The notes under the pieces: model-generated
Database searches by the model: none
What the model saw: the letters and a program-made list of their open reading frames with translations, nothing else
Told to the model about the DNA's origin: nothing
Program-made: the position numbers and the translations under genes
Assembly (NCBI GenBank): GCA_016218805.1
Contig: JACRCW010000065.1
Span: 94,040 to 158,039, forward strand
DNA: 64,000 nucleotides
Reading direction: 5' to 3'
DNA from: Deltaproteobacteria bacterium
Lineage (GTDB): Bacteria > Myxococcota > JACRCW01
Part shown: one piece after another, positions 1 through 50,287 of the stretch
How the letters are laid out: every line of letters starts with the position of its first letter
Position numbering within the stretch: position 1 is the first letter of the stretch

Positions 1-291
1 CCACGGGTGGACGGTGTGAGCCCCAACGAGCGGACCGCGGGGACGGGCGGCGACACTGCGATCCTGGGCCGCTACCTCAAGCCCGCGTACAACGCGTGGA
101 GTGACGACGTAACTCCGGTGCGGGCGTTTGTGGATGACCGCGAGGTCACGGTGCTGGAGGCGGACGCGGGAGGCAGCCGGCTGCGCGTGGAATTGCCGGA
201 CGACCTGGCCGCGGGGCTGCACAACGTCCGGGTGGAGAACCGGTTTGGGACGGACACGCTGGAGAACGCCTATCTTGTTGTGGGGCCCTGA
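1..291 (+). CDS. hypothetical protein, C-terminal fragment (5' end outside window)
   Basis: Open frame runs in from position 1 (…ENAYLVVGP*). Codon usage is typical of the genome. Confidence 0.4.
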   Translation, partial: PRVDGVSPNERTAGTGGDTAILGRYLKPAYNAWSDDVTPVRAFVDDREVTVLEADAGGSRLRVELPDDLAAGLHNVRVENRFGTDTLENAYLVVGP

Positions 292-297
292 CCGGCG

Positions 298-2178
298 TCA
301 TTTCATCTTGGCCTTCATCATGCGCAGCGCGGCCTGCTGGATGGCCGCGGACACGCTCTTGCTCTTGGCCACCGAGCGGATGTCGCTTTCACGCAGCATG
401 GACAGGAAGCGCTGGGACACCGCGATGGGCGCCTTGGGGTTGTTCACCAGGGCCAGCTTCACCGCGTAGGGCCGCGTCATCTCCCTGTTGTTGGCCACGT
501 AGCGGATGACCACGTCCTGCACCGAGCGGCTGTTGGCGGCGGACACCACCTCCTGCGGCGTGATGCGCGGGCTCTTGATCACCGCCTCGGCCACCATCCG
601 GTTGGACTCACGGATGAGGATGGAGCGCACTTCCTTGTTGCCCTTGAGGGCCGCCGCGATCTTCTGCGACGTGGACATCTTCATGATCTTCTGGTTGATG
701 GTGAGGCGCTTGCCCGACGCGTCCACGCTGTCGTCGTCCTCCAGCGAGGCAAGTTCCTCGGCGGACATGGCCTCCAGTTCCGCTTCGGTCTTGCCCTCCT
801 CGGTCTGCTGGCCGGGTTTCCAACCCTGCGGGGCCTTGCCTTCCCGGAACGCCCGCTCCTGCAGGTCCGGAGACAGCAGGTCAAACGGAACCTCAATGTG
901 CTTCACCGCCTCCTCAAGTTCCGTCTTGCCCAGGCGGGACACGGAGTCCTGGAACTCGGGAACGTCATCCAGCACGATGCCGACGCGCACCATGAAGTCA
1001 ATGACGTTTTCAAGCACACTCTTGAGCGTGTGCCCGTTCTCCTTGAGCGCGCGGCAGATGTCATGGTGCCGCAGGATGCGCTCCTGGTTGTTGGCAATCA
1101 GCCCGATCACCGTCTCATTGGACGTGAGCCGCGCCGCCTTGGCGTAGGTCTCGTCCGCCGTCTGGCGGTTGAGCAGGATGGTCTCCATCCACTTGGGATT
1201 GTCCACCAGCTTCTGCGCAAACAGGTCCAGGACCGGCGCGGCGATCTTCTCGCCCAGGACGGCCTGGAGGATCCGGTCCGGGAACGTGCTGAAGCTCTTG
1301 TCCGCCGCCTCCGCAATCTTGGGATCCGTGTCGCCGGTGAGCAGAAAGACGACGTGGACGAGTTCGCGCGGCGGGATGGGCGCCAGGCCTTTGGCCGCCA
1401 TCATCCGCAGCGGCGCCGGCGCCCCGCCCGTGTGCTTGCGCACCGCGTCGCTGATGAACTCCGGAGGAAGCGCTCGCTCGCCGGAGGCCGGGAGGCTTGG
1501 TGGCGGCGGGCCGCTGTCAACGGGGGCAGGGGCCGCTACCGGTGCCGGTGCGGCGGCCACGGGCGCCGGCTCCCCAACGGGAACCGCGGCGGCCGCCTTG
1601 GGGGCGGGCGGCGGCGGCGCCACCGGGGCAGGGGCCACCGGGGCAGGCGCCGGCGAACCACCGGGCGGCGTGGATTCCTCCACGGCGGACAACTCCAGGC
1701 CGATGTCCGCCGCGGCGACCGCAGCGGGCGGCGGTGCGGGCCGCGGGGCGGCAACCGCGGAACCGGGGAGCGCGGCCGGCGCGCGCGGCGCAGACCCGGG
1801 CAGCGGTGCTGGTGACGACGGGACGGCAGAACCGGGCAGCGGCGCGGCGGCGCGCGGTGGCGGTGGTGCGGAACCGGGTAGCGGCGCAGGTGACGACGGG
1901 ACGGCGGAACCAGGCAGCGGCGCGGCGGCACGTGGCGCGGGTGGGGCGGAACCGGGAAGCGGCGCGGCGGCTCGTGGTGGTGGCGGTGCGGAACCGGGCA
2001 GCGGTGCTGGTGACGACGGGACGGCAGAACCGGGCAGCGGCGCGGCGGCACGTGGCGCGGGCGGCGCGGAGCCGGGCAGCGGCGCGGGGGCCCTCGGCGC
2101 AGGCGCCGCAGTACCCGGTAGTGGCGCCGGGGCACGCGCCGGAGTGCCGGGTGGTGGCGGTTGGCGAGGTTCGTTCAT
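298..2178 (-). CDS. proline-rich tandem-repeat protein with an alpha-helical (HEAT-like) C-terminal domain. Alternative upstream start at 2295.
   Basis: Long minus-strand ORF. An internal ATG at 2178 starts 'MNEPRQPPPP', followed by about 9 copies of a 13-aa APLPGSAxPxxRA unit. The C-terminal globular region is about 350 aa. No recognisable catalytic motif. Confidence 0.5.
   Translation of the reverse strand: MNEPRQPPPPGTPARAPAPLPGTAAPAPRAPAPLPGSAPPAPRAAAPLPGSAVPSSPAPLPGSAPPPPRAAAPLPGSAPPAPRAAAPLPGSAVPSSPAPLPGSAPPPPRAAAPLPGSAVPSSPAPLPGSAPRAPAALPGSAVAAPRPAPPPAAVAAADIGLELSAVEESTPPGGSPAPAPVAPAPVAPPPPAPKAAAAVPVGEPAPVAAAPAPVAAPAPVDSGPPPPSLPASGERALPPEFISDAVRKHTGGAPAPLRMMAAKGLAPIPPRELVHVVFLLTGDTDPKIAEAADKSFSTFPDRILQAVLGEKIAAPVLDLFAQKLVDNPKWMETILLNRQTADETYAKAARLTSNETVIGLIANNQERILRHHDICRALKENGHTLKSVLENVIDFMVRVGIVLDDVPEFQDSVSRLGKTELEEAVKHIEVPFDLLSPDLQERAFREGKAPQGWKPGQQTEEGKTEAELEAMSAEELASLEDDDSVDASGKRLTINQKIMKMSTSQKIAAALKGNKEVRSILIRESNRMVAEAVIKSPRITPQEVVSAANSRSVQDVVIRYVANNREMTRPYAVKLALVNNPKAPIAVSQRFLSMLRESDIRSVAKSKSVSAAIQQAALRMMKAKMK
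1790..2150. repeat. in-frame tandem repeat of about 39 bp (13 codons), about 9 copies, inside the Pro-rich protein gene
   Basis: The unit ggaaccgggcagcggcgcggcggcacgtggcgcgggc recurs in variant forms. It encodes the PLPGSA repeats on the minus strand. Confidence 0.6.
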
Positions 2179-2356
2179 CGGTGTTCCTGCTGAGCTGCGC
2201 TCGAGGTCGGATGCGGCCCGAGGTTGCCACATCCGCGGCGGAACACCTAGGCGCGGCCCACCACACCCGCCCCCCACCCGGGCGATGCTCCGCATCGCAT
2301 CGCCCGACCTCCCCCCGCAAGCGAGGGGAGGCGGTGCTGTGTTGTGCCTTTCCGCT

Positions 2357-3559
2357 TCAGTCGTTGGGCTTCTCGGGCGCCGGCGCCGTCGCCATGAAGT
2401 CCTTCTTGAAGCGCTCGCCGTACTCGCCCATCAGCTTTTCAATGCGCTTGCAGTCCGTGGACTTCAGGATGATCCCCGCGTGGTGCTCCTTCTTCACCTG
2501 CATCACGATTTCCGGGTCCGTGTACGCCGAGTAGTCCGGCCACGCCTGCCGCGCGAGCGTCACCGCCGCGCCCGCGTAGTCCCTGCGAACATTCTTGGGC
2601 AGCTCATACGGGACCTGGCCCTTGTCGATCTCGATGTTGGCCCACTCCTCCCACAGGTTCACCCCCGTGGCCGCCTCCACCACGTCGGAGATGTGCGCCC
2701 CGCCCACGCGCGCGCTGGTCTCCATGAAGTAGAACTTCCCGTCCTTGCCCTTGATGTACTCGGTGTGGCTCACGCCGCGGACCAGGTTGAGCCGCGTCAG
2801 CACCTGCTCGTTGAGCTTGCGCAGTTCCTTCTCATCACTGCTGCCGCGCTCCACCGTGTGCGTGGTGAAGATGCCCCCGCCGTGCGCCACGTCAAACGGC
2901 GGCGTGCCGCACCGGTGCACCTCGGCAAACGCCACCTTCTTCTCGGAGATGATGGAGTCGCAGTGGTAGATGTCCCCGGGCACAAACCGCTCCAGCAGGA
3001 AGTAGCTCTGCTGGTCACCCAGGCGCTCCAGTTCCTTCCACAGCTGGTCCGGGTCCCGGATCTTGCGGATGCCGGTGGCGGACGCCTGCGAGCGCGGCTT
3101 CAGCATCCACGGCGGCGGCACGCGCGCCATGTACTCGCGCAGCTCGTCGTAGTTGAGCACGTGCACAAAGTCCGGCACGGGGATGCCCTCCTCCTGCGCC
3201 TTCACCCGCATGGCCAGCTTGTCGCGGAAGTGGCGCGCGGTGGTGTCACCCATGCCGGGGATGCGCAGGTGCTCGCGCAGGCTGGCCGCCGTCTCCACGT
3301 CGTAGTCGTCCATGGGAACAATGCGGTCAAACTTGATGGAGCGCGCCAGGTAGCTCACCGTGTTGAGCGTATGGGACAGCGGGCTGTCGTCCTGCTGGGC
3401 AAACACATCCGCGAGCACCTCGCGCGGCCAGGCCTCATTGAGGCGCTTGGCGACGGTGAGCAGGAACAGGCGCGCACCGCGGCGCGCGGCCTGGCGCATG
3501 AAACGGTCACCCTTGAAGTAGCTGGCAAGCACCAGGATGTTGAGCGGTTTCTGGGACAC
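2357..3559 (-). CDS. ATP-grasp domain protein (putative peptide/amide ligase)
   Basis: GTG start at 3559 is preceded by GGAG. The ATP-grasp fold shows in 'MLKPRSQASATGIRKI…FLLERFVPGDIYHCDS…YFMETSARVGG'. Confidence 0.7.
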   Translation of the reverse strand: MSQKPLNILVLASYFKGDRFMRQAARRGARLFLLTVAKRLNEAWPREVLADVFAQQDDSPLSHTLNTVSYLARSIKFDRIVPMDDYDVETAASLREHLRIPGMGDTTARHFRDKLAMRVKAQEEGIPVPDFVHVLNYDELREYMARVPPPWMLKPRSQASATGIRKIRDPDQLWKELERLGDQQSYFLLERFVPGDIYHCDSIISEKKVAFAEVHRCGTPPFDVAHGGGIFTTHTVERGSSDEKELRKLNEQVLTRLNLVRGVSHTEYIKGKDGKFYFMETSARVGGAHISDVVEAATGVNLWEEWANIEIDKGQVPYELPKNVRRDYAGAAVTLARQAWPDYSAYTDPEIVMQVKKEHHAGIILKSTDCKRIEKLMGEYGERFKKDFMATAPAPEKPND

Positions 3560-3614
3560 GGCGGAACTCCGGGCGCCCGGGCGCGGGCGCGGATTTGGGG
3601 GGGGGGACCGGGAT

Positions 3615-5390
3615 CTAGTAGAGCGTGTGGACCCCGTGGAAGGTGTCATAGACGGTCAGCGGGATGGCCGCGCCGCGCGCGGGGGCAAACTCCGGCCGCC
3701 CAAGCCAGCGGCGCACCCGCTCCAGCTGCGCGTCCGTGCCGTCCCAGCTCAGCGACGCAACCTGGCGCCGCAGCGTGGGCTGGACGTGGAAGGTGTGCCA
3801 GGTGTGGCCGCGCTGCACGGTCAGCGTGCAGGGGCGCCTGCGGGCAACCACCCATTGAAACGCTTTGAGGCTCCAGGGGAACCCGTCAATGCGCTGCAAC
3901 TGGTCACCGGGGGCCAGGCCCGCGCGCGCGGCCGCGGTGCCGTCAAACACGTTGAGGATCGCCGGGCCTTTCTCGTCGGCCAGCGTGACCCCCAGGCACG
4001 CCACCTCTTCGTGCGTGAGACGGAAGCCCAGCGCGCCGAGCATCTCCTCGGTGCGCAGCACACCGGCGCGCGCGGTGTCCATTTCAATGAGTTCACGCAG
4101 CGCGGGCACGCGCGCGGCAAAGAACTCCACCACGTCCGCGTGCGTGAAGCCGCGCGGCAGGTGTTGGCGGTAGAACTCACCGAATTCACGCAGCAGCGAC
4201 CGGTCCGCGCCCACCAGCACCGCGTCCATGTCAAACGCGATGAGCATCCCGACGTCATAGTAGTCCACGGAGTTGTTGGGGCTGCCCGGGTAGCGGTGGT
4301 GGTTGAGGAAGGTGGCCAGCGAGCTGTCCCGCGCGGTGGCGACGCGGTACGCCGGCGTCCAGGACAGGTGGCGGTGGAAGTTGACCACGTTGGAGAGGAA
4401 GTCCGCGGGGGCCATCTCACCGGTGCCCACCAGCAGCAGGTACTCCGCATAGCGCGTGATGCCCTCAGCCACCCACAGCAGGTCCGTGAAACTGCCGTGC
4501 TCCAGGTCCGGCCGGAGCAATTCACGGGGTTTCAGCGCGCACACGTTCCACGCGTGGTACAGCTCATGCGCCACCAGCCGCAGCGCGCGGCGGCGCTCCG
4601 CCTCGTCCACAAACGCGAGTTCGCCGAATGCGACCATGGTGGAACTGCGGTGCTCCAGTCCCCAGTGGTGCTGCGGCGCAAAGGAACAGAAGAACGTGTA
4701 GTCCGCAAACGGAAACCCGCCGAAAAGGTCCCGGCAGCGTTCCGCGACCTTCATCGCCGCGTCCAGGAACCGCTCGCGCTCTTCATCAAAGCCGACGCAG
4801 CGGTTGAGGAACACAAAGTGGAATGGCGTGCCCGCGCAGTCACGCGTGAAGCGGTCAAACGCGCCTGCGGCCACGGGCGTGTCCATCATGGCGTGGAAAT
4901 CCGCGTATTCAAAGCGTGCGCCGCCGCGGTCCACGGCGCCGTAGGGGTGGTGCAGCGGCCATTCCGGCGGGAAGCGGTAGGTCACGGAGACGGGCCCGTC
5001 CCACTCGGGGACCTGCAGCCAGGAGGTGCCCAGCAGCACCGCCTGCGTCTGTTCCAGGTAGCCGTGCAACTCGCTCCACGCGGGCTCGTACAGGTGCACG
5101 CGGTAGCGCAGCTCCACCCGGTGCACCCCGCCGCCCACCTTCCACGCGGTGAGACCGTCCCGCTCCAGCGGCAGGACCGCGCCGGTGACGGCGTCACGGG
5201 CCTCCATGGCGGAGAGGTTGCGCGCGTAGCGCAAGAACGCGTACGCGCCCGGCACCCACGTGGGAACGCGCACCCGCAGCGGGTCCGGCATCCCGCGCGC
5301 GTCCACGTCCACCACCACGTCCAGCACGTGCTCGGCGGGGTGCGCCGTCACCGTGTAGTTCACGCGCGGGGTGTCGTCGCGGGCGGGCAT
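3615..5390 (-). CDS. M61-family zinc metallopeptidase (glycyl aminopeptidase-like) with C-terminal PDZ domain
   Basis: HEXXH motif 'HELYHAWN'. Size and layout match M61 peptidases. PDZ-like region 'GVTLADEKGPAILNVFDGTAAARAGLAPGDQL'. Start chosen at ATG 5390 (MPARDDTPRVNYTV). Confidence 0.75.
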   Translation of the reverse strand: MPARDDTPRVNYTVTAHPAEHVLDVVVDVDARGMPDPLRVRVPTWVPGAYAFLRYARNLSAMEARDAVTGAVLPLERDGLTAWKVGGGVHRVELRYRVHLYEPAWSELHGYLEQTQAVLLGTSWLQVPEWDGPVSVTYRFPPEWPLHHPYGAVDRGGARFEYADFHAMMDTPVAAGAFDRFTRDCAGTPFHFVFLNRCVGFDEERERFLDAAMKVAERCRDLFGGFPFADYTFFCSFAPQHHWGLEHRSSTMVAFGELAFVDEAERRRALRLVAHELYHAWNVCALKPRELLRPDLEHGSFTDLLWVAEGITRYAEYLLLVGTGEMAPADFLSNVVNFHRHLSWTPAYRVATARDSSLATFLNHHRYPGSPNNSVDYYDVGMLIAFDMDAVLVGADRSLLREFGEFYRQHLPRGFTHADVVEFFAARVPALRELIEMDTARAGVLRTEEMLGALGFRLTHEEVACLGVTLADEKGPAILNVFDGTAAARAGLAPGDQLQRIDGFPWSLKAFQWVVARRRPCTLTVQRGHTWHTFHVQPTLRRQVASLSWDGTDAQLERVRRWLGRPEFAPARGAAIPLTVYDTFHGVHTLY

Positions 5391-5452
5391 GGCTCCTCCT
5401 GGGCGCGCCGCACTACCAGAGCACGGGACGGAATCAACCGCCGGATGGGCGT

Positions 5453-6460
5453 TCAGGACGGCAGGCGCAGCAGGCGGGCCGCGTTGCCGTACAGCACGCC
5501 GTGGCGGAGCGCGGCGTTGCCCTCGGTGGCCATGAGCACCTTCGCGAGGGCGATGGCCTGGTGGTAGAACGGCCAATCCGTCCCGTACATGATCCTGCGC
5601 GTGTCACCCTGCTCCAGCAGCCGCCGCAGCGCCGGCAGCCCTTGTGACGAGATCTCCATCCACGCATTGGGATAGCGGTTCAAGAGCGCCGTGGCCTCCT
5701 CCACCTGCAGCGCGCCGGCGTGTCCCAGCACAAAGGTCGTCTCCGGGCATTCGCGCAGCGGTCTTTCATAGAAGCGCACCTGCGACAGGTGCCGCCCCAG
5801 CCGCGGTTCAATGCCGACGGGACCGCAGTGCCACAGCACCGGCAGGCCGCGCGCGCCGCACGCGCGGTACAGCTTGATGGCGCGCTCATTGTCCGGGCGG
5901 ACGGATTGCACGGCGGGGTGCATCTTCACGCCACGCGCGCCGCGGGCCACCAGGTCATCCAGGTGGTGCTCCATGTCCACGTCATACGGGTGGATGCTGC
6001 CAAAGCAGACAATGCCCTCCACCCCGCGCGTGACCTCCAATGCGTTCTCGCTGTTGCGGGAGAGGAACGGGAAATCAATGGGCAGCAGCACGGAGCGCGC
6101 AATGCCCATCTCGCCCATCTCACGCAGCAGGTTGGGGAGCGTGTGCGTGGCGCGCAGGCCTCCCGCGGTGAGGCTCCCCAGTGTGAGGTCCCGCTTCATC
6201 TGCTTGAGCCGCGCCACCGTGAAGTTGCGGTTCACGTACACGTCCAGGTCCACCGCGCAGCACGCCGGCAGGTAGTGCTCGGTCCACGGGGTGGGCTTGC
6301 GCAGGTCCAGTTGCAGCGGGCGCACGTAGGCCAGCGCCAGGTGCGTATGCATGTCAATGATCGGCCCCACGGAGCGGTCGTGCATCACCAGCCGCCCGTC
6401 CACAACCTTGAACCAGGGAAGCCGGGCGAGGTCTGCGAGGTCGCGGAAGCGGGTCTCCAT
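5453..6460 (-). CDS. amidohydrolase-2 family metal-dependent hydrolase (TIM barrel)
   Basis: 'IDMHTHL' near the N-terminus. Amidohydrolase_2-like spacing of His and Asp residues (…VLGHAG…YGTDWPF). Confidence 0.7.
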   Translation of the reverse strand: METRFRDLADLARLPWFKVVDGRLVMHDRSVGPIIDMHTHLALAYVRPLQLDLRKPTPWTEHYLPACCAVDLDVYVNRNFTVARLKQMKRDLTLGSLTAGGLRATHTLPNLLREMGEMGIARSVLLPIDFPFLSRNSENALEVTRGVEGIVCFGSIHPYDVDMEHHLDDLVARGARGVKMHPAVQSVRPDNERAIKLYRACGARGLPVLWHCGPVGIEPRLGRHLSQVRFYERPLRECPETTFVLGHAGALQVEEATALLNRYPNAWMEISSQGLPALRRLLEQGDTRRIMYGTDWPFYHQAIALAKVLMATEGNAALRHGVLYGNAARLLRLPS

Positions 6461-6469
6461 GGGTGCGTC

Positions 6470-7792
6470 TCAGCCTGCGTCCAGCGTGTCCATGCCGTCC
6501 ATGAAGTCCAGGATGATGTCATGGATGGCGCCGCGGTCTTCCATGGAGCCCAGCATCCCGTACATGGCGGAGGAACCCTCGGGCACCACCTTGCCGTGTT
6601 CCAGTCCGTTGACGCATTCGCGCAGGTCCGTCAGGAACGCGTCCACCACGCCCTTGTGCGCCGGCGTCACCATCATGTGCAGGCACGGCGGGCGCTGCTG
6701 CCGGTCCAGCTTCCAGCCGCGCTTCTCCATCACGTCCGCCAGGCCGTACACGTCAATGACGTCAGAAGTGAACGCAAACACGCCCATCACCGGGTTGCCC
6801 ATGATTCTCAGACCGGGCGTGGCGCGGATGCCGTCCAGGATGCGCCCCGTGGTGTCCATCACGTCCCGGGCAATGGTGGTGTAGCCGTCCATGCCAATGT
6901 GGTTGAGCGCGGCCCACGCCGCGGCAATGGCGCCGCCCGGCCGGGTGCCGGTCATGGACGGGGAACCGTACAATCCGCCGGGCCAATCCCCGTAGGTGAA
7001 GTACTGGAAACGCCGCAATTCCCGCGAGCGGTACACCACGGTGGAGGCGCCCTTGGCCGCAAAGCCGTACTTGTGCAGGTCCGCAGAGATGGACGTCACG
7101 CCGTCCACCCGGAAGTCCCAGGGCGGGACGGCGCGGCCGGTACGTTCCAGAAATGGCAGGAAATACCCGCCCACGCACGCATCCACGTGGCACAGGATGC
7201 CGTGCTGCCGGGCCAGCGCGGCCAACTCCTCAATGGGATCGATCACGCCGTGCGGATAGGCGGGCGCGGACCCGACGACCAGGATGGTGTCCGCCGTGAC
7301 CAGGTCCCGCGCGCGCGCCACGTCCACGCGCAGGTCTTCCCCCAGCGGCATGTGCACGGCGGACACACCGAAGTAATGCGCGGCTTTCTCGAACGCCGGG
7401 TGCACGGACAACGGCACGAGCATTTTCGGTTGTTTCACCCCCGGGCGATTGACGCGCGCCCAGTCACGCGCGGCTTTCACCGCCATGAGGATGCTCTCAC
7501 TGCCCCCGCTGGTCATGGACCCGGCGGCACCCGGTGGCCCGTGGAACAGGTCCACCGCCATGGCCATCACCTCCTGTTCAAACCGGCGCAGCGACGGGAA
7601 CGCCATGGGGTTGAGGCCGTTTTCGGAGAAGAACTTGGTATACGCCTCCTTGACCACCGCCAGCGCCTCGTCGCTGGCCCAGTACACCAGGCTCCACGTC
7701 TTGCCGCGGCGCCAGTCGGCGTCGGACCGCGCGAGTTCATCCATGCGCGCCATCAGCGCAGCGCGCGGGGTTCCCTGCTCCGGGATCTTCAT
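6470..7792 (-). CDS. PLP-dependent group II decarboxylase (sphingosine-1-phosphate lyase / glutamate decarboxylase-like)
   Basis: PLP-lysine motif 'SISADLHKYGFAAKG'. 'GGSESILMAVKAAR'. Length 440 aa. Confidence 0.75.
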   Translation of the reverse strand: MKIPEQGTPRAALMARMDELARSDADWRRGKTWSLVYWASDEALAVVKEAYTKFFSENGLNPMAFPSLRRFEQEVMAMAVDLFHGPPGAAGSMTSGGSESILMAVKAARDWARVNRPGVKQPKMLVPLSVHPAFEKAAHYFGVSAVHMPLGEDLRVDVARARDLVTADTILVVGSAPAYPHGVIDPIEELAALARQHGILCHVDACVGGYFLPFLERTGRAVPPWDFRVDGVTSISADLHKYGFAAKGASTVVYRSRELRRFQYFTYGDWPGGLYGSPSMTGTRPGGAIAAAWAALNHIGMDGYTTIARDVMDTTGRILDGIRATPGLRIMGNPVMGVFAFTSDVIDVYGLADVMEKRGWKLDRQQRPPCLHMMVTPAHKGVVDAFLTDLRECVNGLEHGKVVPEGSSAMYGMLGSMEDRGAIHDIILDFMDGMDTLDAG

Positions 7793-7881
7793 GGTGGTGT
7801 GCTCCTCGAGGGGGTTTGGGGCGGCGGCAAGCTATCACGGCAGGGCGCGGCCCCGGGTCCTCTGGTACAACGGGCGGGCCC

Positions 7882-8325
7882 ATGACCGCCTACCTGCTGG
7901 TGGCCCTGATGGCCATGCCCGGTCCCCTGCTGTGGGCCCTCAGCACGGAGGCCATTGTCGTCTACCAGGTACACGCCGGGCTGGACCCGCTGGGCCTGGC
8001 GGCCAGCGCGGCGCTGGGCCAGGTGGGCACCTTCCTCATCCTGTACGCGCTGGGTGAAAAGGGCCTGCGGCGCATCCGCTGGTTTGATGAACGCCTCAAC
8101 CGCCTGGATGACCGCGCGCGCGAACGGATGCGCCGCTCCACGACGGGCGCGCTGGTGTCCGGGGGGCTGGTGGGGCTGCCGCCGGTGATTGCCATGGCGC
8201 CGTTCTGCGGGACGGTGTTCTACCCGCGCCTGCGCATGAGTGCGATTGTGTTCATCACGCGGATGGTGCGTTTCTCGGTGCTGACCCTGGGCGGGCAGCA
8301 GGTGCTGGCGTGGTTTGGACTGTGA
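7882..8325 (+). CDS. small integral membrane protein (VTT/YqaA-like), hypothetical
   Basis: Four predicted hydrophobic helices. ATG at 7882. Confidence 0.45.
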   Translation: MTAYLLVALMAMPGPLLWALSTEAIVVYQVHAGLDPLGLAASAALGQVGTFLILYALGEKGLRRIRWFDERLNRLDDRARERMRRSTTGALVSGGLVGLPPVIAMAPFCGTVFYPRLRMSAIVFITRMVRFSVLTLGGQQVLAWFGL

Positions 8326-9194
8326 GCGCGTGGCTGCTGGTTGCCCTGGCTGTCCCGGCGGCGGCCGCGGGGCAGTTGGAGGGGTCCGGGCATTGGGCGG
8401 CGGGCGCCGAGGGCTCAGTGGCCGGACGGTACAACCCGGTGGGCGTGTCCGCCGCGCTGCGCACCACGCTGCGGTACCGCTTCTTCCCGCCGGGCCACCC
8501 GCTGCGGCAGCCGGGACTGCGGCAGGCGCTGTTTGCCCCCTCGTCGGTGGGCCTGGCAGCGACGGTGGATGCCAATCCCGCGTTTGTGCGCGGCGGCGTG
8601 GGGGTGGAGTTCATGCCCGCCGCCGTGTGGCGCACGCGCATCACCTACCAGGCGGCGCAGACGTTTGGGACGTTTGGGTACATGACGCAATTCCCGTCAC
8701 GCGGAGACGCGTTTGATGGGTACGCGCGCTGGTGGCGCATGCGCGCGGGCGGACGCGCCACGCCGCGGATTGTGCAGCGGCTGGTGGCGGACACGCAGTG
8801 GCAGGCACGGGTGTGGCGGTTCATTGCGCTGGACCTGCTGACCGTGGATGGCAACTGGGCCGGCGCTGACGGGTGGTTCTACAACGGCGAATATGACCTG
8901 CTGGTGCACGGCCGCTTCGAAGTGGTGGTGCGCAACATTGGCCTGGTGGCGCTGTCCGTCCTGGACCGGGCCGGGTTGCCGGAGCTGTCAGTGGGCATGT
9001 TTCACGGCGTGGCGCACGCGTGGCGGTCCCGCGGGCAGAACCAGCAGCTGGGCGCGGCGGTGATCATCGGGCCGCCGCTGCGCGGCGTGGTGCGCAACGC
9101 GGTGAGCGTGATCCTGTTGGCGGGAATGCACACGCAGTCGCGCTCGCGGGAGTTGACGCCGTACATGGTGGGCCTGGCCACCGTGTCGTTCTGA
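8310..9194 (+). CDS. secreted hypothetical protein (signal peptide, Trp/Arg-rich)
   Basis: N-terminal 'WLLVALAVPAAAAGQ' signal peptide. No recognisable motif. Confidence 0.45.
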   Translation: MVWTVSAWLLVALAVPAAAAGQLEGSGHWAAGAEGSVAGRYNPVGVSAALRTTLRYRFFPPGHPLRQPGLRQALFAPSSVGLAATVDANPAFVRGGVGVEFMPAAVWRTRITYQAAQTFGTFGYMTQFPSRGDAFDGYARWWRMRAGGRATPRIVQRLVADTQWQARVWRFIALDLLTVDGNWAGADGWFYNGEYDLLVHGRFEVVVRNIGLVALSVLDRAGLPELSVGMFHGVAHAWRSRGQNQQLGAAVIIGPPLRGVVRNAVSVILLAGMHTQSRSRELTPYMVGLATVSF

Positions 9195-15980: not shown

Positions 15981-18900
15981 ATGATCTCCCCCGAGAAGAC
16001 GCCCTACGCCCCCGTCAGCCACGACGTGAACATCCCCGCCCAGGAGGCCGAGATCCTCGCAGCCTGGGACCAGGGCCACACGTTTCAGAAGTCCCTGGAC
16101 GCCACCCGGGATGCTCCCTTCTACAGCTTCTATGACGGGCCCCCGTTTGCCACCGGCCTGCCGCACTACGGCCACCTGCTCGCCGGCGTCCTCAAGGACA
16201 TTGTCCCCCGCTATTGGACCATGCGCGGCCGCCACGTCCCGCGCCGCTTTGGCTGGGACTGCCACGGTCTCCCCGTGGAATACGAGATCAACAAGGCGCT
16301 CAACGTCCAGGACCGCAAGCAGATCATCGCCATGGGCGTGGACAAGTACAACGAGGCCTGCCGCGGCATTGTCACGCGCTACACCGAGGAGTGGAAGCGC
16401 ACCGTCCGGCGCATTGGCCGCTGGGTGGACATGGACCACGCGTATTTCACCATGGACCCCTCGTTCATGCAGAGCGTGTGGTGGGTCTTCAAGCGCATGT
16501 GGGACCAGGGCCTCATCTATGAGGGCTACAAGGTGGTCCCCTACTCCGTGGGCATCTCCACGCCGCTGTCCAACTTTGAGGCCAAGCAGAACTACAAGGA
16601 CGTGCAGGACCCGGCGCTGACCCTGCTTTTCAAGGTGCGCGGCGAGGAGAACCTGTTCTTCCTGGCCTGGACGACGACACCCTGGACGCTGCCGTCCAAC
16701 CTCGGCCTCGCCGTGGGGAAGGACCTGGACTACGTCCGCGTGCGCGATCCCAAGGACGGGCGGCGCTACATCGTCGCGGAGGCGCTCCGGGGCGCGGTGT
16801 TCGGCAAGCACCCGGTGGAGGAGGAGGCGCGCTTCAAGGGCGCCGAGCTCATCGGGAAGAAGTACGAGCCGCTGTTCCCGTACTTCGCCGCCAAGGAGGC
16901 GGAGGGCGCCTTCCGCGTCATTCACGCAGACCACGTCACCATCGACGCGGGCACCGGCGTGGTGCACATGGCGCCCGCGTTTGGCGAGGAGGATTTCATT
17001 GCCGGCAAGGCCGCCGGGCTGCCCATTGTGAACCCCGTGGACGACGACGGCCTGTTCACCGCCGAGGTGAAGGACTGGGCTGGCCGCAAGCTCAAGGAGG
17101 CTGACCCCGAGATCATTGCGCACCTCAAGGCGCGCGGCATTGTCTTCAAGCACGAGACGATCACGCACGCCTACCCGTTCTGCTACCGCTCCGACACGCC
17201 GCTCATCTACCGCGCCGTGACGAGCTGGTTTGTGAAGGTGGAGGCGATCAAGGCGCGCATCATCGCCGCCAACAAGCAGACCTGCTGGGTGCCGGAGACG
17301 CTGCGGGACGGGCGGTTTGGCAACTGGCTGGAAGAGGCGCGGGACTGGGCCATCAGCCGCAACCGCTTCTGGGGCACGCCGCTGCCCGTGTGGCGCAACG
17401 CCGAGGGCGAGACGATCTGCATCGGCTCCAGCGAGGAACTGGAGCAGCTCAGTGGCACACGCGTCACCGACCTGCACACGCACCACGTGGACCGGATCAC
17501 CATCCCGTCGCAGAAGGGCGGTTCGCCGCTCAAGCGCATTGAGCCGGTGCTGGACTGCTGGTTTGAGTCCGGCTCCATGCCCTACGCGGAGCACGGCTAC
17601 CCGGTCACCGGAAAGGAGCGCTTTGAAAAGGGCTTCCCGGCGGAGTTCATTGCGGAGGGTCTGGACCAGACGCGCGGCTGGTTCTACACGCTGATGGTCA
17701 TCGGCACGGCGCTGTTTGACCGCGCGCCGTTCAAGAATGTCGTCGTCAACGGGCTGGTGCTGGCCGAGGACGGCAAGAAGATGTCCAAGCGTCTGCGCAA
17801 CTACCCGGACCCCAATGAGGTGCTGGACCGCCACGGCGCCGACGCGCTGCGGCTGTACATGATTGACAGCCCGGTGGTGAAGGCGCAGGAACTCCGCTTC
17901 TCCGAAAAGGGCGTGCGCGACGTGGTGCGGCGCATCCTGCTGCGCTGGTGGAACGCGTACAGCTTCTTTGTGAACTACGCGAACATTGACGCGTTTGTGC
18001 CGCGCGGTGACGCCGAGAAGAGCCCGAACATCCTGGACCAGTGGATCCTGTCCAAGACCAACACGCTCATCCACACCGTCAACGAGGAGATGGAGAAGTA
18101 CCGGCTCTACAACGTGGTGCCTGCGCTGCTGTCATTCATTGAGGAGCTGACCAACACGTACATCCGCTTCAACCGCCGTCACTTCTGGGCGGACGGGATG
18201 CCGGAGGACAAGCGGCTGGCGTTTGAGACGCTGTACGAGGTGCTGTTGCAGACGTCCCGCGTGATGGCGCCGTTCACGCCGTTCATGGCGGACAACGTGT
18301 TCCGCAACCTGGCCCGCGTCCGGCCCGGCCTGCAGGAGAGCGTGCACCTGGAGCGTTTCCCCGCCGCGCGCGAGGAGCTGCGCAAGCCCGCCCTGGAAGC
18401 GAGCGTGGAGCGGATGGAGAAACTGGTGGAAATGGGCCGGAACCTCCGCGAGAAGATTGGCGTGAAGGCCAAGATTCCGCTCAGGACTTTGCGCGTGATC
18501 CACCGCAACCAGGCTGTGTTGGAGGACCTCAAGCGGCTGGAGGGGTACTTTGTGGAGGAGCTCAACGTCCGCGAGGTGGTGTACGACGCTGACGAGGCCG
18601 CGCACCTCACGTTTGCGTGCAAGGCGAACTTCCCGCGCCTGGGGCCGCGCCTGGGGCCGCGCATGAAGGTGTTTGCCGCGGCGGTTTCCAAGCTCAGTCC
18701 TGACGAGCTCAACCGCCTGGAGGAGGGCGGCACGCTGACCCTGGAAGGCGAGACCATCACCCGTGAGGACGTGGACATCCGCCGCGCACCGCTGCGCACG
18801 GACGTGGTGCTGGCCTCCACCGGGGCGATTTCCATTGAATTGGACCCCACGGTCACGCGCGAGCAGCAGGTGGAAGGGCTGGGCCGCGAGGTGTTGCGGC

Positions 18901-19127
18901 GCGTGCAGATGGCCCGCAAGAGTGCGCGCCTCAAGCTGGATGACCGCATCCACCTGTCGCTTGCGCTCACCGGCGAACTGCTGGAGGCCGCGCAGGCGCA
19001 CCAGGAACGCATTGCCGCGGAGGCGCTGGCGGTCTCCGTGAAGTTTGAGGCGGAGCCCACCGGCGCGTTTGTGGAGAAGTCCGACGTGGACGGCGACGCC
19101 GTTGGCGTGGGCCTGACGAAGGCGTGA
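15981..19127 (+). CDS. ileS: isoleucine--tRNA ligase, type 2 (eukaryote-like)
   Basis: HIGH-class motif 'PPFATGLPHYGH'. 'KMSKRLRNYPDP'. 1048 aa. Confidence 0.9.
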   Translation: MISPEKTPYAPVSHDVNIPAQEAEILAAWDQGHTFQKSLDATRDAPFYSFYDGPPFATGLPHYGHLLAGVLKDIVPRYWTMRGRHVPRRFGWDCHGLPVEYEINKALNVQDRKQIIAMGVDKYNEACRGIVTRYTEEWKRTVRRIGRWVDMDHAYFTMDPSFMQSVWWVFKRMWDQGLIYEGYKVVPYSVGISTPLSNFEAKQNYKDVQDPALTLLFKVRGEENLFFLAWTTTPWTLPSNLGLAVGKDLDYVRVRDPKDGRRYIVAEALRGAVFGKHPVEEEARFKGAELIGKKYEPLFPYFAAKEAEGAFRVIHADHVTIDAGTGVVHMAPAFGEEDFIAGKAAGLPIVNPVDDDGLFTAEVKDWAGRKLKEADPEIIAHLKARGIVFKHETITHAYPFCYRSDTPLIYRAVTSWFVKVEAIKARIIAANKQTCWVPETLRDGRFGNWLEEARDWAISRNRFWGTPLPVWRNAEGETICIGSSEELEQLSGTRVTDLHTHHVDRITIPSQKGGSPLKRIEPVLDCWFESGSMPYAEHGYPVTGKERFEKGFPAEFIAEGLDQTRGWFYTLMVIGTALFDRAPFKNVVVNGLVLAEDGKKMSKRLRNYPDPNEVLDRHGADALRLYMIDSPVVKAQELRFSEKGVRDVVRRILLRWWNAYSFFVNYANIDAFVPRGDAEKSPNILDQWILSKTNTLIHTVNEEMEKYRLYNVVPALLSFIEELTNTYIRFNRRHFWADGMPEDKRLAFETLYEVLLQTSRVMAPFTPFMADNVFRNLARVRPGLQESVHLERFPAAREELRKPALEASVERMEKLVEMGRNLREKIGVKAKIPLRTLRVIHRNQAVLEDLKRLEGYFVEELNVREVVYDADEAAHLTFACKANFPRLGPRLGPRMKVFAAAVSKLSPDELNRLEEGGTLTLEGETITREDVDIRRAPLRTDVVLASTGAISIELDPTVTREQQVEGLGREVLRRVQMARKSARLKLDDRIHLSLALTGELLEAAQAHQERIAAEALAVSVKFEAEPTGAFVEKSDVDGDAVGVGLTKA

Positions 19128-19128
19128 A

Positions 19129-19506
19129 ATGATCATGGGCGTGGGGACCGACCTGGTGCACGTGCCGCGCATGGCGCGGCTGGTGGTGCGCTGGGAGCAC
19201 GACTTCCTCCGCCGCATCTTCACTGAGAACGAGATTGCGTACTGCAACCGGCACGTGGAGCCGGCGAAGCACTACGCGGCCCGGTTTGCCGCCAAGGAGG
19301 CGTTCTACAAGTCCGTGAGCGGCGGGCACCCGCTGGAACTGGGATTCCTGGATGCGTGGGTGGACAACCCGCAGCGCGCGCCCGTGCTGGGGATGTCACC
19401 CAAAGCGTGGAAATACGCGGTCGCCCGCGGCGCGAATCACTTTGATCTCAGCGTGGCGCATGACGGTGACTACGCGCTGGCGACGGTGGTGGCGTCCGCG
19501 CAGTGA
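19129..19506 (+). CDS. acpS: holo-[acyl-carrier-protein] synthase
   Basis: 'MIMGVGTDLVHVPR…FAAKEAFYK'. 125 aa, directly downstream of ileS. Confidence 0.8.
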   Translation: MIMGVGTDLVHVPRMARLVVRWEHDFLRRIFTENEIAYCNRHVEPAKHYAARFAAKEAFYKSVSGGHPLELGFLDAWVDNPQRAPVLGMSPKAWKYAVARGANHFDLSVAHDGDYALATVVASAQ

Positions 19507-23784: not shown

Positions 23785-23859
23785 CCGGACTCCCAGGGCT
23801 GAGGGCCCTGGGAAGATAGCCCCATTTCCTATCGCCGCGCTTTCCGCTAGCACCGCCGC

Positions 23860-25923
23860 ATGCGACCCGTGGTTCTTGTGTACCCGCCGGCGTGCGACCC
23901 GACGGCGCCGTACCTCAGCGTGCCCACCCTGGCGGCCTACCTGCGCCGCCACGACGTCCCCGTGGTGCCCGTGGATGCCAACGTGGAGGCGTTTGACTGG
24001 CTGCTGACGCCGGCACGCATGCGCGCGTGTGCGGACCGGCTGGAGGAGCGCCTGGCCGCCCTGGAACGGAAGCCGCGCCTGCGGCACGCGGAACAGCTCC
24101 TGCTGGGTGCGCTGTGGTCCGCGCGCGGTGACGCGGTGGCCGTACCCGGCGCCATTGCCGCCGCCGTTGCGGTGCTGCGCGACCCCGCGCGGTTCTACGA
24201 CGTGGAGGCGTACGGCGGCGCGGTGGCCACGGTGGAAGCGGCCGTGCGGCTGGCCAGTGCGGCCTGCGCTCCGCTGCAGATGACCTTCACCGCGTACCGC
24301 ACACCGTTCTCACTGCTGAACGCGGAGGAGATCGCGCGGGATGCGGCACCGGAGCGCAACCCGTTTCATGGGTACTTTGCGGGCCCGCTGGTTGAGAAGA
24401 TCCGCGCCGCTGACCCGGTGCTGGTGGGCATCTCCATTGCGTTTCCGGGACAGGTGCAGCCCGCGTATGCGCTGGCCCACGTGCTGCGGCAGGCGCTGCC
24501 GGGTGTGCGCCTTGTTGCCGGGGGGCCCGCGCTGACGCAGCTGTTCCAAGGCCTGCCCGCCGGGAACGCGCAGGCGGCGGCCGCGCTGTTTGATCACGTG
24601 GTCACCTATGAAGGCGAAAAGGCGCTGCTGGGCCTGGTGCATGCGCTGGAACAGGGGGACACCCCGCCACGCTTCATTCCGGGCGAACAGGTGACCGACC
24701 TGGGCGCGCTGCCCCCCCCGGATTTTTCCGGACTGCCGCTGGAGAAGTACCTGGCACCCGAGGTGGTCCTCCCCTACGATCCCACGCGCGGCTGCTACTG
24801 GGGCAAGTGCACCTTCTGCCACTACGGCCTGGCGGAAACGGGGACGGCCGCCTACCGCGAACGCCCGGTTGACGACGTGGTGAACCACCTGGAGGACCTG
24901 CAGCGGCGGCACGGCACGCGCGTGTTCTACTTCAGCCAGGACGCGGTGAATCCCAAGACCATGCTGCGCATGGTGCAGGGGCTGCGCGCGCGCGGCGTCA
25001 CGCTGCGGTGGTCCACGGACATGCGGCCGGAGCGGTCCCTCACACCGGAGCGCTGCCGCGAGTTGCGTGACGGTGGCGCGCTGTCCATGGCGCTGGGCGT
25101 GGAGAGTGCTGCGCCGCGCGTGCTGGGCCTCATTGACAAGGGCGTGCCGGTGGAGACCGTGCGTGACGCCATGCGGGCGCTGTCCGGCGCGGACATTGGC
25201 GTGGAGGCCATGTGCTTCACCGATTTCCCGACGGAGAACTACCGCGAGGCGATGGCCACGGTGCGGTTTGTGGAGGAACTGGCGGAGCACGTGGCGCTGT
25301 TCATCTGCGGCGAGTTTGAGCTCACCAAGGGGTCATTGGTGGCGCGGGATCCCGCCAGGTTTGGTGTGGCGGAGACGTGGAAGGTGGCCGGGGATGAGCT
25401 GGGCCTGGGCCTGTTCTGGCGCGAGCAGCGCGATCCCAAGTCCGCCGACGAGCGCGCCCGCGTGGACGACGCGCTGTCCGGGTTGAGCCGGCGCTGGCGC
25501 CTGGAGCACTACCCGTGGGCGGGTGCGCTCAGCACCGCGCACACGCTGCTGTACTACGAGCGCTTCGGTCCCGACTGTTTCCGGCGGTTCTCGTCAACGG
25601 GGAAGGGGCGGGTTCCGGGTGCACAGCCGCGGACCTTCCCCTCCCGGTACGACGTGGTGGGCCTGCTGGCCACGGCCGCGGAGCATGAGGCGGCCGCCTG
25701 GGAGGAACTGATCCAGCAGCAGCGCGCCGTGTCGCGGGCGGCGTACCGCACGCGGGTGGACGGGTGGCCCGCAGCGGAGCCCCGTCCGGGCCGCTACCGC
25801 GTGGCGGCCGGGGAGCCGGTGCGCGAGGCTGGTGGCCGCAGCGCGCGCGGCCGGAACCGGGCGGGGCGGCGCGCCTCCCACGCGCACCACGCGGCCAGGG
25901 ATCCGGTGCGCGGCTGGAGTTGA
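23860..25923 (+). CDS. B12-binding-domain radical SAM protein (class B)
   Basis: N-terminal Rossmann-like B12-binding region (VVLVYPPA…). Radical SAM cluster motif 'CYWGKCTFC'. Arg-rich C-terminal tail. Confidence 0.75.
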   Translation: MRPVVLVYPPACDPTAPYLSVPTLAAYLRRHDVPVVPVDANVEAFDWLLTPARMRACADRLEERLAALERKPRLRHAEQLLLGALWSARGDAVAVPGAIAAAVAVLRDPARFYDVEAYGGAVATVEAAVRLASAACAPLQMTFTAYRTPFSLLNAEEIARDAAPERNPFHGYFAGPLVEKIRAADPVLVGISIAFPGQVQPAYALAHVLRQALPGVRLVAGGPALTQLFQGLPAGNAQAAAALFDHVVTYEGEKALLGLVHALEQGDTPPRFIPGEQVTDLGALPPPDFSGLPLEKYLAPEVVLPYDPTRGCYWGKCTFCHYGLAETGTAAYRERPVDDVVNHLEDLQRRHGTRVFYFSQDAVNPKTMLRMVQGLRARGVTLRWSTDMRPERSLTPERCRELRDGGALSMALGVESAAPRVLGLIDKGVPVETVRDAMRALSGADIGVEAMCFTDFPTENYREAMATVRFVEELAEHVALFICGEFELTKGSLVARDPARFGVAETWKVAGDELGLGLFWREQRDPKSADERARVDDALSGLSRRWRLEHYPWAGALSTAHTLLYYERFGPDCFRRFSSTGKGRVPGAQPRTFPSRYDVVGLLATAAEHEAAAWEELIQQQRAVSRAAYRTRVDGWPAAEPRPGRYRVAAGEPVREAGGRSARGRNRAGRRASHAHHAARDPVRGWS

Positions 25924-40168: not shown

Positions 40169-40235
40169 CCGGCCCAGGGTTCCCATCCCCGAGCCACTTG
40201 TCTATAGGACCCCGTCTCGTCTTCACGGAGGTCCC

Positions 40236-50269: not shown

Positions 50270-50287
50270 GGTCCCATCCTCCCGCGC

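Follow-up and report, generated by a model that had tools for sequence, protein, structure and literature searches.

The question raised by this locus is whether four closely spaced enzyme genes form one system or two separate gene pairs. The window, which is the whole 64-kb (64,000-nucleotide) stretch analysed here, contains a minus-strand run of five genes, in which the enzyme genes are separated by gaps of 9, 62, and 55 bp and the ATP-grasp gene lies 61-178 bp from a gene for a Pro-rich protein. The features are as follows:

6470-7792, minus strand: PLP enzyme, 440 aa
5453-6460, minus strand: predicted Amidohydro_2 enzyme (AH2), 335 aa, 9 nt from the PLP enzyme gene
3615-5390, minus strand: predicted M61 aminopeptidase, 591 aa, 62 nt from the Amidohydro_2 gene
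2357-3559, minus strand: predicted ATP-grasp ligase (ATPg400), 400 aa with GTG as start codon, 55 nt from the M61 gene
298-2295, minus strand: Pro-rich open reading frame, likely true start at 2178
1796-2136: DNA tandem repeats with periods of 42, 78, and 120 (Tandem Repeats Finder), encoding PLPGSA motifs
7816-8325, plus strand: p169, divergent from the PLP enzyme gene
8310-9194, plus strand: p294, overlapping p169

All coordinates of the four enzymes agreed with those of the original prediction, and Pfam searches returned the same domain identity for each of them, including the pairing of a ligase (ATP-grasp) with a hydrolase (M61). The ATG of the M61 gene is preceded by AGGAGG, and the NCBI start is identical (MBI5495428.1). 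For the ATP-grasp gene, GGAG lies upstream of the GTG, and the resulting 400 aa agrees with the lengths of homologs (396-401 aa); the NCBI model of 430 aa begins from an ATG at 3649 and would give a 35-nt overlap with M61. A pattern scan detected no terminator-like sites in the intergenic gaps, so co-transcription is plausible from the sequence. Scanning positions 200-8400 for sigma-70-like promoters gave no match, as expected for this phylum, and no promoter-like block was conserved when the 62 bp between AH2 and M61 were aligned with the sequences that precede M61 in relatives. The base composition was uniform over the junction and did not indicate a recent insertion. As runs of five co-directional genes are common in bacteria, the arrangement by itself is no proof.

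Neighbourhood surveys were anchored on the ATP-grasp gene (80 genome loci and 5 others, ±10 kb) and on AH2 (80 metagenome loci, with absences counted only where flanks exist, many contigs being short). Neither SPL, the sphingosine-1-phosphate lyase family to which the PLP enzyme is assigned below, nor AH2 was found within 10 kb of the ATP-grasp homologs (0/85 loci), and neither M61 nor ATP-grasp was found near the AH2 homologs (0/80 loci). Each pair was conserved by itself. Of the 56 informative loci, 30 had an SPL homolog adjoining AH2 and co-directional with it, 23 of these 30 having gaps of 14-77 bp; the order of SPL then AH2 recurred in many metagenomic lineages and was kept with SPL identity down to 54%. 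In L114, L118, and L119, the genes were arranged differently, an SPL paralog being located downstream. Where SPL was most similar (70% identity; contigs L091 and L093), no M61 gene followed AH2. In GC3-filtered clustering of open reading frames from the high-GC AH2 flanks, the genes recovered were limited to SPL, an EamA transporter (identified by Pfam), a secreted protein, and kinases.

M61 was followed by ATP-grasp in all eight relatives with 66%-81% ATP-grasp identity (L086, L087, L088, L169, L170, L171, L174, and L175). Across the whole survey, M61 was located directly upstream of ATP-grasp in L003/4, L007, L012, L044, L086-88, L169-171, L174, and L175, and among the 85 ATP-grasp loci it was seen in those of Myxococcota only; in L001, the two genes were in divergent orientation. 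The flanks changed completely among relatives while the pair was kept. The region upstream of M61 was visible in four of the eight close relatives, where it held p169/p294 (L171), p169 (L086), RimK-like and Est1 genes (L088), or GCS2 and a 403-aa gene (L174), and none of these four had SPL or AH2 there. In L169, L170, and L175, the closest by ATP-grasp identity, the contig stops inside M61, so the four-gene order could occur in them.

The genes p169 and p294, which had no Pfam or NCBIfam match, occur beside either module on different contigs. In L171, the pair p169/p294 adjoins M61 and points away from M61 and ATP-grasp, with p169 nearer, and the window has SPL and AH2 between p169 and M61. 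The same pair adjoins AH2 in L092 and L094. On the 6-kb contig L094, AH2 and a homolog of a 399-aa protein that is usual beside ATP-grasp lie roughly 3 kb apart, so in some Myxococcota both modules are located in one region of the chromosome. Taken together, the zero co-occurrence in both surveys and the relatives without SPL-AH2 upstream of M61 speak against the original reading of the four genes as one system, and four-gene synteny was not found outside close relatives. We conclude that the minus-strand run is probably a mosaic in which two modules, each conserved on its own, do not make up one pathway, although they may be read through together in this Myxococcota MAG. Among about 170 related loci, this genome was the only one in which the two pairs were found side by side.

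The first module begins with the PLP enzyme, which matched Pyridoxal_deC in Pfam (64.9 bits) and carries the NCBI name 'aspartate aminotransferase family protein' (MBI5495430.1). A phmmer search of the PDB gave E-values of 1.8e-119 for the S. thermophilum SPL (3mad; residues 2-438), 2e-110 for human SPL, and 6.3e-100 for yeast SPL, but only 6.3e-29 for the decarboxylase MfnA, whose model was the top one in NCBIfam at 231.7 bits, under its cut-off of 299.4. Judged by these matches, the protein is a predicted member of the sphingosine-1-phosphate-lyase family, cytosolic and without an N-terminal membrane segment; the earlier assignment to an SPL/GAD type was right. With StSPL (3MAD), human SGPL1 (4Q6R), the B. 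pseudomallei enzyme (5K1R), and yeast Dpl1 (3MC6), it has full-length similarity (1e-119 to 1e-100) and the PLP lysine motif SADxHKYGxxAKG in common. Unlike them, it lacks an N-terminal extension or membrane anchor, its gene is paired with an Amidohydro_2 gene, and its head-group site reads ENALNPM instead of the canonical SNPLHPD. We found no relevant report in the literature of an SPL paired with an amidohydrolase.

The PLP-binding residues of StSPL are K311, D274, H201, H310, G168/T169, and S353 (PMC10243590). In StSPL numbering, the K, D, H, and H of this set are identical in the PLP enzyme, with the conservative changes T169 to S and S353 to T. Among the head-group contacts, Y105, N126, and K317 are kept, while H129 is changed to N and A103 to L. 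Position 129, which is H in both StSPL and human SPL, was N, S, or D in 27 of the 28 AH2-linked SPL homologs, the remaining match having no coverage there. This clade-wide change at the head-group site suggests that the substrate may differ from canonical S1P, and the AH2-linked clade with H129 changed to N may be a lyase or decarboxylase of new specificity and not an S1P lyase.

The partner of this enzyme scored 105 bits against the Amidohydro_2 profile (PF04909; Pfam cut-off 26.4), and D36/H38/H40, H181, H211, H247, and D295 were invariant among 23 homologs. Its AF2 model had a pLDDT of 91.4 and matched AH2 structures with a Foldseek probability of 1.00. From sequence and model, the 5453-6460 product is predicted to be a metal-dependent TIM-barrel enzyme of the Amidohydro_2 family. 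The nearest structure was the uncharacterised BB4693 (3IRS), followed by IDCase, gamma-resorcylate decarboxylase, ACMSD, LigW, and COG3618 lactonases, with 13%-19% identity to characterised members. The fold and the HxH...H...H...D metal-site pattern are common to all of these, whereas an identity of at most 19% to those decarboxylases, lactonases, and hydratases is too low for subfamily assignment. We propose that the SPL-family enzyme would act on a phosphorylated 2-amino-alcohol, for instance the phosphate of a long-chain base, by retro-aldol cleavage or a similar reaction at the alpha carbon, and that the TIM-barrel enzyme would then handle a precursor or product. Sphingolipids are made by myxobacteria. 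Sphingolipid synthesis genes are present in Myxococcus, Stigmatella, and Sorangium (PMC9386255).

The second module consists of the M61 and ATP-grasp genes. The M61 product matched Peptidase_M61 (87.8 bits) and M61_N (68.6 bits) in Pfam, its translation shows the HELYH and WVAEG motifs, and it was similar to PDB entries 4fgm (2.7e-32) and 8j9c, a glycyl aminopeptidase (2.4e-11). The C-terminal PDZ matches were under cut-off (PDZ_2, 19.9 bits against 27; PDZ, 18.5 bits), and PDZ_2/PDZ_6 are annotated on M61 homologs. The 3615-5390 product is a predicted zinc aminopeptidase of the M61 family, with a putative PDZ-like domain at its C-terminus. The M61_N and M61 domains and the HExxH...E zinc site are common to it and the M61 glycyl aminopeptidases (Idiomarina 4FGM and 8J9C/8J9D), as may be the PDZ-type domain. 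Unlike those enzymes, it is predicted to be cytoplasmic (a signal peptide is absent) and is encoded immediately 5' of an ATP-grasp ligase. The literature search returned no relevant report of an M61 and ATP-grasp pairing.

ATPg400 matched the Pfam ATP-grasp profile at 28.4 bits (cut-off 27) and ATPgrasp_N at 20.9 bits, under cut-off. Its top PDB matches were L-amino acid ligases (LALs), namely 4wd3 (1.1e-18) and 3vot (1.9e-9), together with 30VH (2.7e-9); D-Ala-D-Ala ligases and BacD ranked behind them. These rankings point to a LAL-type ATP-grasp enzyme. Its nearest relatives, 4WD3, BL00235/3VOT, and BacD (1e-18, 2e-9, and 2e-4), likewise have about 400 aa and an ATPgrasp_N-type N-terminal domain, but they are distant, and ATPg400 represents a separate, strongly conserved family rather than a secondary-metabolite enzyme. 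This family is very large, with thousands of members and an identity of at least 52% among Myxococcota, Acidobacteriota, Gemmatimonadota, Ignavibacteria, and Chloroflexota. Nothing relevant was found in the literature on LALs in Acidobacteria or Myxococcus. Of the subfamilies suggested earlier for the ligase, the cyanophycin-synthetase-like and RimK-like ones do not fit: the cyanophycin-synthetase model TIGR02068 gave 22.3 bits against a cut-off of 850, over the ATP-grasp core only, and RimK was absent from the 24 NCBIfam matches. The CphA architecture, with two domains in about 870 aa, also differs from a protein of 400 aa. The RimK-like member is a separate 325-aa cluster partner in other genomes (1.5e-8).

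In other lineages, ATPg400 is encoded beside GCS2, this RimK-like ATP-grasp, a circularly permuted ATP-grasp (CP_ATPgrasp), and two PF00756 alpha/beta-hydrolases (Est1 and Est2). The order is GCS2-RimK-like-CP_ATPgrasp-M29-Est1-Est2-ATPg400 in L022, Est1-RimK-like-GCS2-M29-399aa-ATPg400 in L076, and Est1-RimK-like-M61-ATPg400-399aa in L003 and L012. The aminopeptidase slot is occupied by M61 in Myxococcota and by M29 in Acidobacteriota and Bryobacteraceae. Clusters of this type ranged over Myxococcota, Acidobacteriota, Vicinamibacteria, Bryobacteraceae, and Binatus, and none of Est1, Est2, GCS2, RimK-like, CP_ATPgrasp, and M29 is encoded within the 64-kb window. Iyer, Abhiman, Burroughs, and Aravind reportedly described, in 2009, neighbourhoods of ATP-grasp, GCS2/COG2170, and circularly permuted ATP-grasp genes with peptidases. 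Those amidoligase-plus-peptidase neighbourhoods likewise combine several carboxylate-amine ligases with hydrolases and were reportedly predicted to synthesise small peptides or peptide tags; the set compared with them here comprises the LAL-like ATPg400, M61 or M29, two PF00756 hydrolases, GCS2, the RimK-like enzyme, and the 399-aa protein.

Downstream of ATP-grasp, the Pro-rich reading frame is open to 2295, but translation probably begins with the Met of MNEPRQPPPPGT at 2178. The protein has a disordered N-terminal region with ten (A)PLPG(S/T)A motifs, nine of them LPGSA and one LPGTA, followed by a 366-aa all-alpha ARM/HEAT-like solenoid domain (AF2 pLDDT 91.8) with weak armadillo-type Foldseek matches. 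Orthologs in L169, L174, and L175 also lie downstream of ATP-grasp; their C-terminal domains are 66%-74% identical, they begin with M(N/S/A)(E/D)PR(Q/R)P, they conserve the C-terminal KAKMK, and they carry about 9, 4, and 1-2 in-frame PLPG copies, respectively. The family has 169 members, all hypothetical and none with a Pfam domain. The gene is missing from most ATP-grasp loci and follows ATP-grasp in three of the eight close relatives. An untranslated PLPGSA region was suggested by the in-frame GC3 (0.64-0.72 vs. 0.85-0.98 elsewhere in the gene) and by gene callers, which place ortholog starts downstream, but was rejected because L169, L174, and L175 keep MxxPRQP and in-frame PLPG by different codons. 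A graspetide (RiPP) system, which would have a precursor peptide with Ser/Thr/Lys and Asp/Glu cores beside ATP-grasp, was also rejected: acidic residues are absent from the A/P/L/G/S repeats of the sole neighbour that carries any, and this protein is 626 aa long and folded in its C-terminal part.

The earlier proposal of synthesis and turnover of a small peptide is supported for M61 and ATP-grasp, a conserved pair in a neighbourhood of ligases, aminopeptidases, and esterases, and is not supported for SPL and AH2. ATPg400 would use ATP to link amino acids into a small cytoplasmic peptide, which the aminopeptidase would trim or recycle, with the PLPG-repeat/ARM-like protein added in the closest clade only. 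Tentatively, and at rather less than even probability, the M61-ATP-grasp pair may be the core of an undescribed, widespread cytoplasmic pathway for the synthesis and turnover of a small peptide of its own. Such a pathway may involve up to four carboxylate-amine ligases, interchangeable M61/M29 aminopeptidases, and two PF00756 alpha/beta-hydrolases, and candidate products would include cofactors of the gamma-glutamyl or thiol type and peptides that serve for storage or as osmolytes.

Three other explanations were weighed. In methanofuran biosynthesis, MfnA is a group II PLP decarboxylase and MfnD an ATP-grasp amine-glutamate ligase, and the four-gene run also pairs a PLP enzyme of the group II fold with a ligase of the ATP-grasp type. 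By analogy, the four enzymes, perhaps together with the Pro-rich protein, could form a single pathway in this organism, in which, for instance, an amine is produced by the PLP enzyme, ATP-grasp couples an amino acid to it, and M61 and AH2 turn the amide over. The short gaps (9, 62, and 55 bp) without a terminator-like site, the rank of MfnA as top NCBIfam model (231.7 bits, under the cut-off of 299.4), and the L094 contig of 6 kb holding AH2 and a supercluster-associated gene are all consistent with such a pathway. We nevertheless regard it as very unlikely, since co-occurrence within 10 kb was 0/85 and 0/80, relatives with 66%-75% ATP-grasp identity keep M61-ATP-grasp without SPL-AH2, and both pairs are conserved separately in many lineages. 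Moreover, the PLP enzyme, unlike MfnA, falls in the SPL clade (1e-119 to S1P lyases vs. 6e-29 to MfnA) and is unlinked to ATP-grasp in the other loci surveyed. There is similarly little chance that all these neighbour relations, M61-ATP-grasp and SPL-AH2 included, are inherited gene order without functional meaning. M61-positive loci are indeed mostly from Myxococcota, and the SPL-AH2 counts come from metagenome contigs without taxonomy; however, SPL-AH2 is kept down to 54% SPL identity and has a second arrangement (L114, L118, and L119), M61-ATP-grasp outlasts a complete change of flanks and occurs in divergent orientation in L001, and the unrelated aminopeptidase M29 takes the same position in Acidobacteriota.

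A slightly better, though still unlikely, alternative is that the second module modifies a protein and not a metabolite. RimK acts on S6 and TTL on tubulin, and by analogy ATP-grasp would add terminal residues and a PDZ-guided M61 would trim them, with the PLPG-repeat protein as target or scaffold. The order of M61, ATP-grasp, and Pro-rich gene in the window, L169, L174, and L175 would suit this explanation, as would the retention of the PLPG motif and the C-terminal KAKMK while copy number ranges from 10 to 1; peptide binding is a function of PDZ-like domains and ARM/HEAT-like folds alike. However, the Pro-rich gene is beside ATP-grasp in the closest clade only (169 members vs. thousands), the ATP-grasp enzyme resembles free-amino-acid ligases rather than RimK, and GCS2, esterases, and M29 give the wider cluster a metabolic appearance.

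These results show that unrelated modules can become merged by close packing of genes in a high-GC MAG, and they define two conserved, uncharacterised gene pairs. The ATPg400 family, which crosses phyla and is tied to amide ligases and an exchangeable aminopeptidase, is a reasonable target in the search for a new small-peptide metabolite, and the SPL-like/Amidohydro_2 pair offers an entry to bacterial catabolism of long-chain-base or related amino-alcohol phosphates.

The window, with a G+C content of about 68-70%, lies on a 166.6-kb contig in a metagenome-assembled genome labelled "Deltaproteobacteria bacterium" (locus tags HY904_...). On its minus strand there are five head-to-tail open reading frames with coding-type GC3 values of 0.82-0.91:

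6470-7792, minus strand, PLP enzyme, 440 aa
5453-6460, minus strand, Amidohydro_2 protein (AH2), 335 aa
3615-5390, minus strand, M61 peptidase, 591 aa; AGGAGG ahead of its ATG, start as in NCBI MBI5495428.1
2357-3559, minus strand, ATP-grasp ligase, 400 aa; GTG start
298-2295, minus strand, Pro-rich protein (ProC), extent of the open reading frame

The gaps between the four enzyme genes are 9, 62 and 55 nt as originally predicted, each predicted enzyme domain was borne out by Pfam, and a pattern scan detected no terminator-like sites in the spaces between the genes, which together confirm the tight co-directional run and make its co-transcription plausible. For the ATP-grasp gene, NCBI gives a 430-aa model from the ATG at 3649 (3560-3649 being extra), overlapping the M61 stop by 35 nt. 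Since the homologs are 396-401 aa long and align from a consensus start xxxxPLNxLxLASYF, the GTG at 3559 was preferred.

Housekeeping genes surround the run (Crp-family regulator, ThiG, MreB, IleRS, AcpS, aspartase/fumarase and ClpP), and an overlapping gene pair without family assignment, p169/p294, lies at 7816-9194 (+). Elsewhere the window encodes a B12-binding radical SAM protein immediately upstream of ClpP (23851-25923, +), a 1,272-aa protein carrying cadherin-like/Big_9 repeats (32430-36248, -) and a 1,383-aa subtilase that contains FG-GAP repeats (39966-44117, +). In a further protein of 1,427 aa (46004-50287, -), an AMP-binding domain is fused to a class-III aminotransferase and a Shikimate_DH-type NAD(P)-binding domain; it may act on a carboxylic acid by loading, transamination and reduction.

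The original prediction treated the four enzymes as one system and named missing synteny as grounds for refuting it; the synteny check did not support the single system. The ATP-grasp family proved very large: of 8,000 scored candidates, 7,982 passed, and the top 120 are at least 60% identical. Scanning one genome per species gave 80 loci with 10-kb flanks (52-63% identity), spread over Myxococcota, Acidobacteriota, Gemmatimonadota, Ignavibacteria, Chloroflexota, Binatus and others. When 85 loci were searched by tblastn with the window's proteins, neither an SPL-like (sphingosine-1-phosphate lyase-like) gene nor AH2 was found near ATP-grasp in any of them, and M61 occurred in Myxococcota-type loci only. 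Conversely, none of 80 metagenome loci retrieved with AH2 (56-65% identity) had M61 or ATP-grasp nearby. An SPL homolog was the same-strand neighbor of AH2 in 30 of the 56 loci with enough flank; SPL lay upstream in 27, with gaps of 14-77 bp in 23 of these, while the other three had a more distant SPL paralog downstream of AH2. An EamA-family transporter (PF00892, 110.9 bits) recurs near such pairs (L093:2293-3147 and nine other AH2 loci).

Where their contigs extend beyond M61, the closest relatives of the window show the same division.

Gene order in the window and its closest relatives, with ATP-grasp identity
Window: p294 and p169, divergent from SPL, AH2, M61, ATP-grasp, ProC
L171, 75%: p294 and p169, divergent from M61, ATP-grasp
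L086, 74%: p169, divergent from M61, ATP-grasp
L174, 66%: RimK-like (-), GCS2, 403-aa protein (-), then M61, ATP-grasp, ProC
L088, 68%: Est1, RimK-like, then M61, ATP-grasp
L169 and L170, 81%: M61, ATP-grasp (then ProC in L169); contigs stop within M61
L175, 75%: M61, ATP-grasp, ProC; contig stops within M61

Compared with L171 and L086, the SPL-AH2 pair in the window fills the interval from p169 to M61. The p169/p294 pair directly adjoins M61-ATP-grasp in L171 (p169 alone in L086) and AH2 in L092 and L094; it is a local anchor beside which either pair is found. On L091 and L093, whose SPL comes closest (70% identity), no M61 lies beyond SPL-AH2. In L088, the Est1 (6533-7251) and GCS2 (18243-19333) homologs are broken into several frames, as pseudogenes or by assembly frameshifts. 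We consider it fairly probable that the run consists of two juxtaposed modules, SPL-AH2 and M61-ATP-grasp, the latter with ProC in the closest clade.

When the flanks of the ATP-grasp loci were clustered and representatives annotated, a wider cluster emerged. Recurrent members were two PF00756 alpha/beta-hydrolases (Est1 and Est2), a 325-aa divergent ATP-grasp (RimK family 1.5e-8, D-Ala-D-Ala ligase 2.9e-4), GCS2 (223.7 bits), a circularly permuted ATP-grasp (PF14403, CP_ATPgrasp), an M29 aminopeptidase and a 399-aa protein without family assignment.

Representative clusters (ATPg400, the 400-aa ligase)
L022:3540-11188, Acidobacteriota: GCS2, RimK-like, CP_ATPgrasp, M29, Est1 (reversed), Est2, ATPg400
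L076:4854-11194, Bryobacteraceae: Est1, RimK-like, GCS2, M29, 399-aa protein, ATPg400
L003:6462-15528, L007 and L012:6578-12422, Myxococcales: Est1, RimK-like, M61, ATPg400, 399-aa protein

GCS2 and a second RimK-like gene lie nearby in L003 and L007, and Est2 was present in 23 of the 80 loci, directly upstream of ATP-grasp in most of them. Four Pyrinomonadaceae loci (L029:10001-12517, L035:290-2769, L058:10001-12833 and L077:10001-12510) carry two convergent ATPg400 paralogs, the second copy being 46-48% identical to the window's protein. As the aminopeptidase beside ATPg400, Acidobacteriota and Bryobacteraceae carry M29 and Myxococcota carry M61, apparently a non-orthologous replacement. As two unrelated aminopeptidase families occupy the same position by the ligase, this is good evidence for a functional link between ligase and aminopeptidase. 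The window has the M61-ATP-grasp core only; Est1, Est2, GCS2, RimK-like, CP_ATPgrasp, M29 and the 399-aa protein are not encoded in its 64 kb. The suggested pairing of a ligase with a hydrolase was supported for M61 and ATP-grasp, and not for the whole four-gene run.

The window's ATP-grasp was closest to L-amino-acid ligases (4WD3, 1.1e-18; BL00235, 1.9e-9). It did not match cyanophycin synthetase, reaching 22 bits where the cut-off is 850, or the RimK model. The M61 protein contains the HELYH...WVAEG motifs and no signal peptide; its PDZ match is sub-threshold and backed by orthologs.

ProC was found downstream of ATP-grasp only in the window, L169, L174 and L175 among the loci examined. Its repeat region was first suspected to be untranslated (low GC3; ortholog gene calls starting downstream), which comparison with these relatives ruled out. 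In all four, the N-terminus reads M(N/S/A)(E/D)PR(Q/R)P and (A)PLPG(S/T/M/V)A motifs come after it in frame; the window has 10 copies, L169 about 9, L174 4 and L175 1-2. The motifs are written in different codons across relatives, so the start in the window is likely the Met at 2178. At L169:1846-2222, L174:8103-8555 and L175:1880-2287, the public ortholog calls begin too late and lose the MxxPRQP N-terminus and PLPG repeats. Over the last 366 residues, identity to the three relatives is 66-74%, and this region is confidently predicted to form an all-alpha solenoid (pLDDT 91.8) with only weak armadillo/HEAT-type matches; its family comprises 169 hypothetical proteins and lacks a Pfam domain. 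ProC is a possible partner or substrate limited to this clade.

The PLP enzyme aligned over its full length with solved SPLs (StSPL 1.8e-119, human 2e-110, Burkholderia 2.1e-100, yeast 6.3e-100) and far more weakly with the decarboxylase MfnA (6.3e-29); it is no generic decarboxylase. Compared with StSPL it is 70 residues shorter at the N-terminus, and it contains no membrane segment. Judged by a published residue list (PMC10243590; StSPL numbering), the Schiff-base lysine, D274, H201, H310, K317, Y105 and N126 are kept, but Asn takes the place of the phosphate-contacting head-group residue H129, the motif reading ENGLNPM (residues 56-62; 7609-7629) versus SNPLHPD in StSPL and human SPL. This position is N, S or D in 27 of 28 AH2-adjacent SPL homologs (L090-L167; the 28th match did not span it), whose motif is ENALNPM, and the replacement suggests a distinct specificity subclade of AH2-linked SPLs. 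In AH2 the D-x-H-x-H, H, H, D pattern is invariant and a TIM-barrel is confidently predicted (pLDDT 91.4); the closest structure, BB4693, is uncharacterised, and AH2 is at most 19% identical to characterised decarboxylases and lactonases of its family.

Both pairs are built of well-known enzyme families, and neither was described in the literature as far as it was searchable. M61-ATP-grasp is a conserved pairing of an L-amino-acid-ligase-like enzyme and an aminopeptidase within a multi-ligase cluster, in which the ligase would use ATP to form a small cytoplasmic peptide that the aminopeptidase would trim or recycle. SPL-AH2 is likewise a conserved enzyme pairing, sometimes with an EamA transporter nearby. 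Its SPL-family member would cleave a phosphorylated 2-amino-alcohol, plausibly a long-chain-base phosphate, as myxobacteria have serine palmitoyltransferase and produce sphingolipids (PMC9386255), and a precursor or product of that reaction would be the substrate of AH2. The Asn at H129 leaves room for another head group or even another reaction type.
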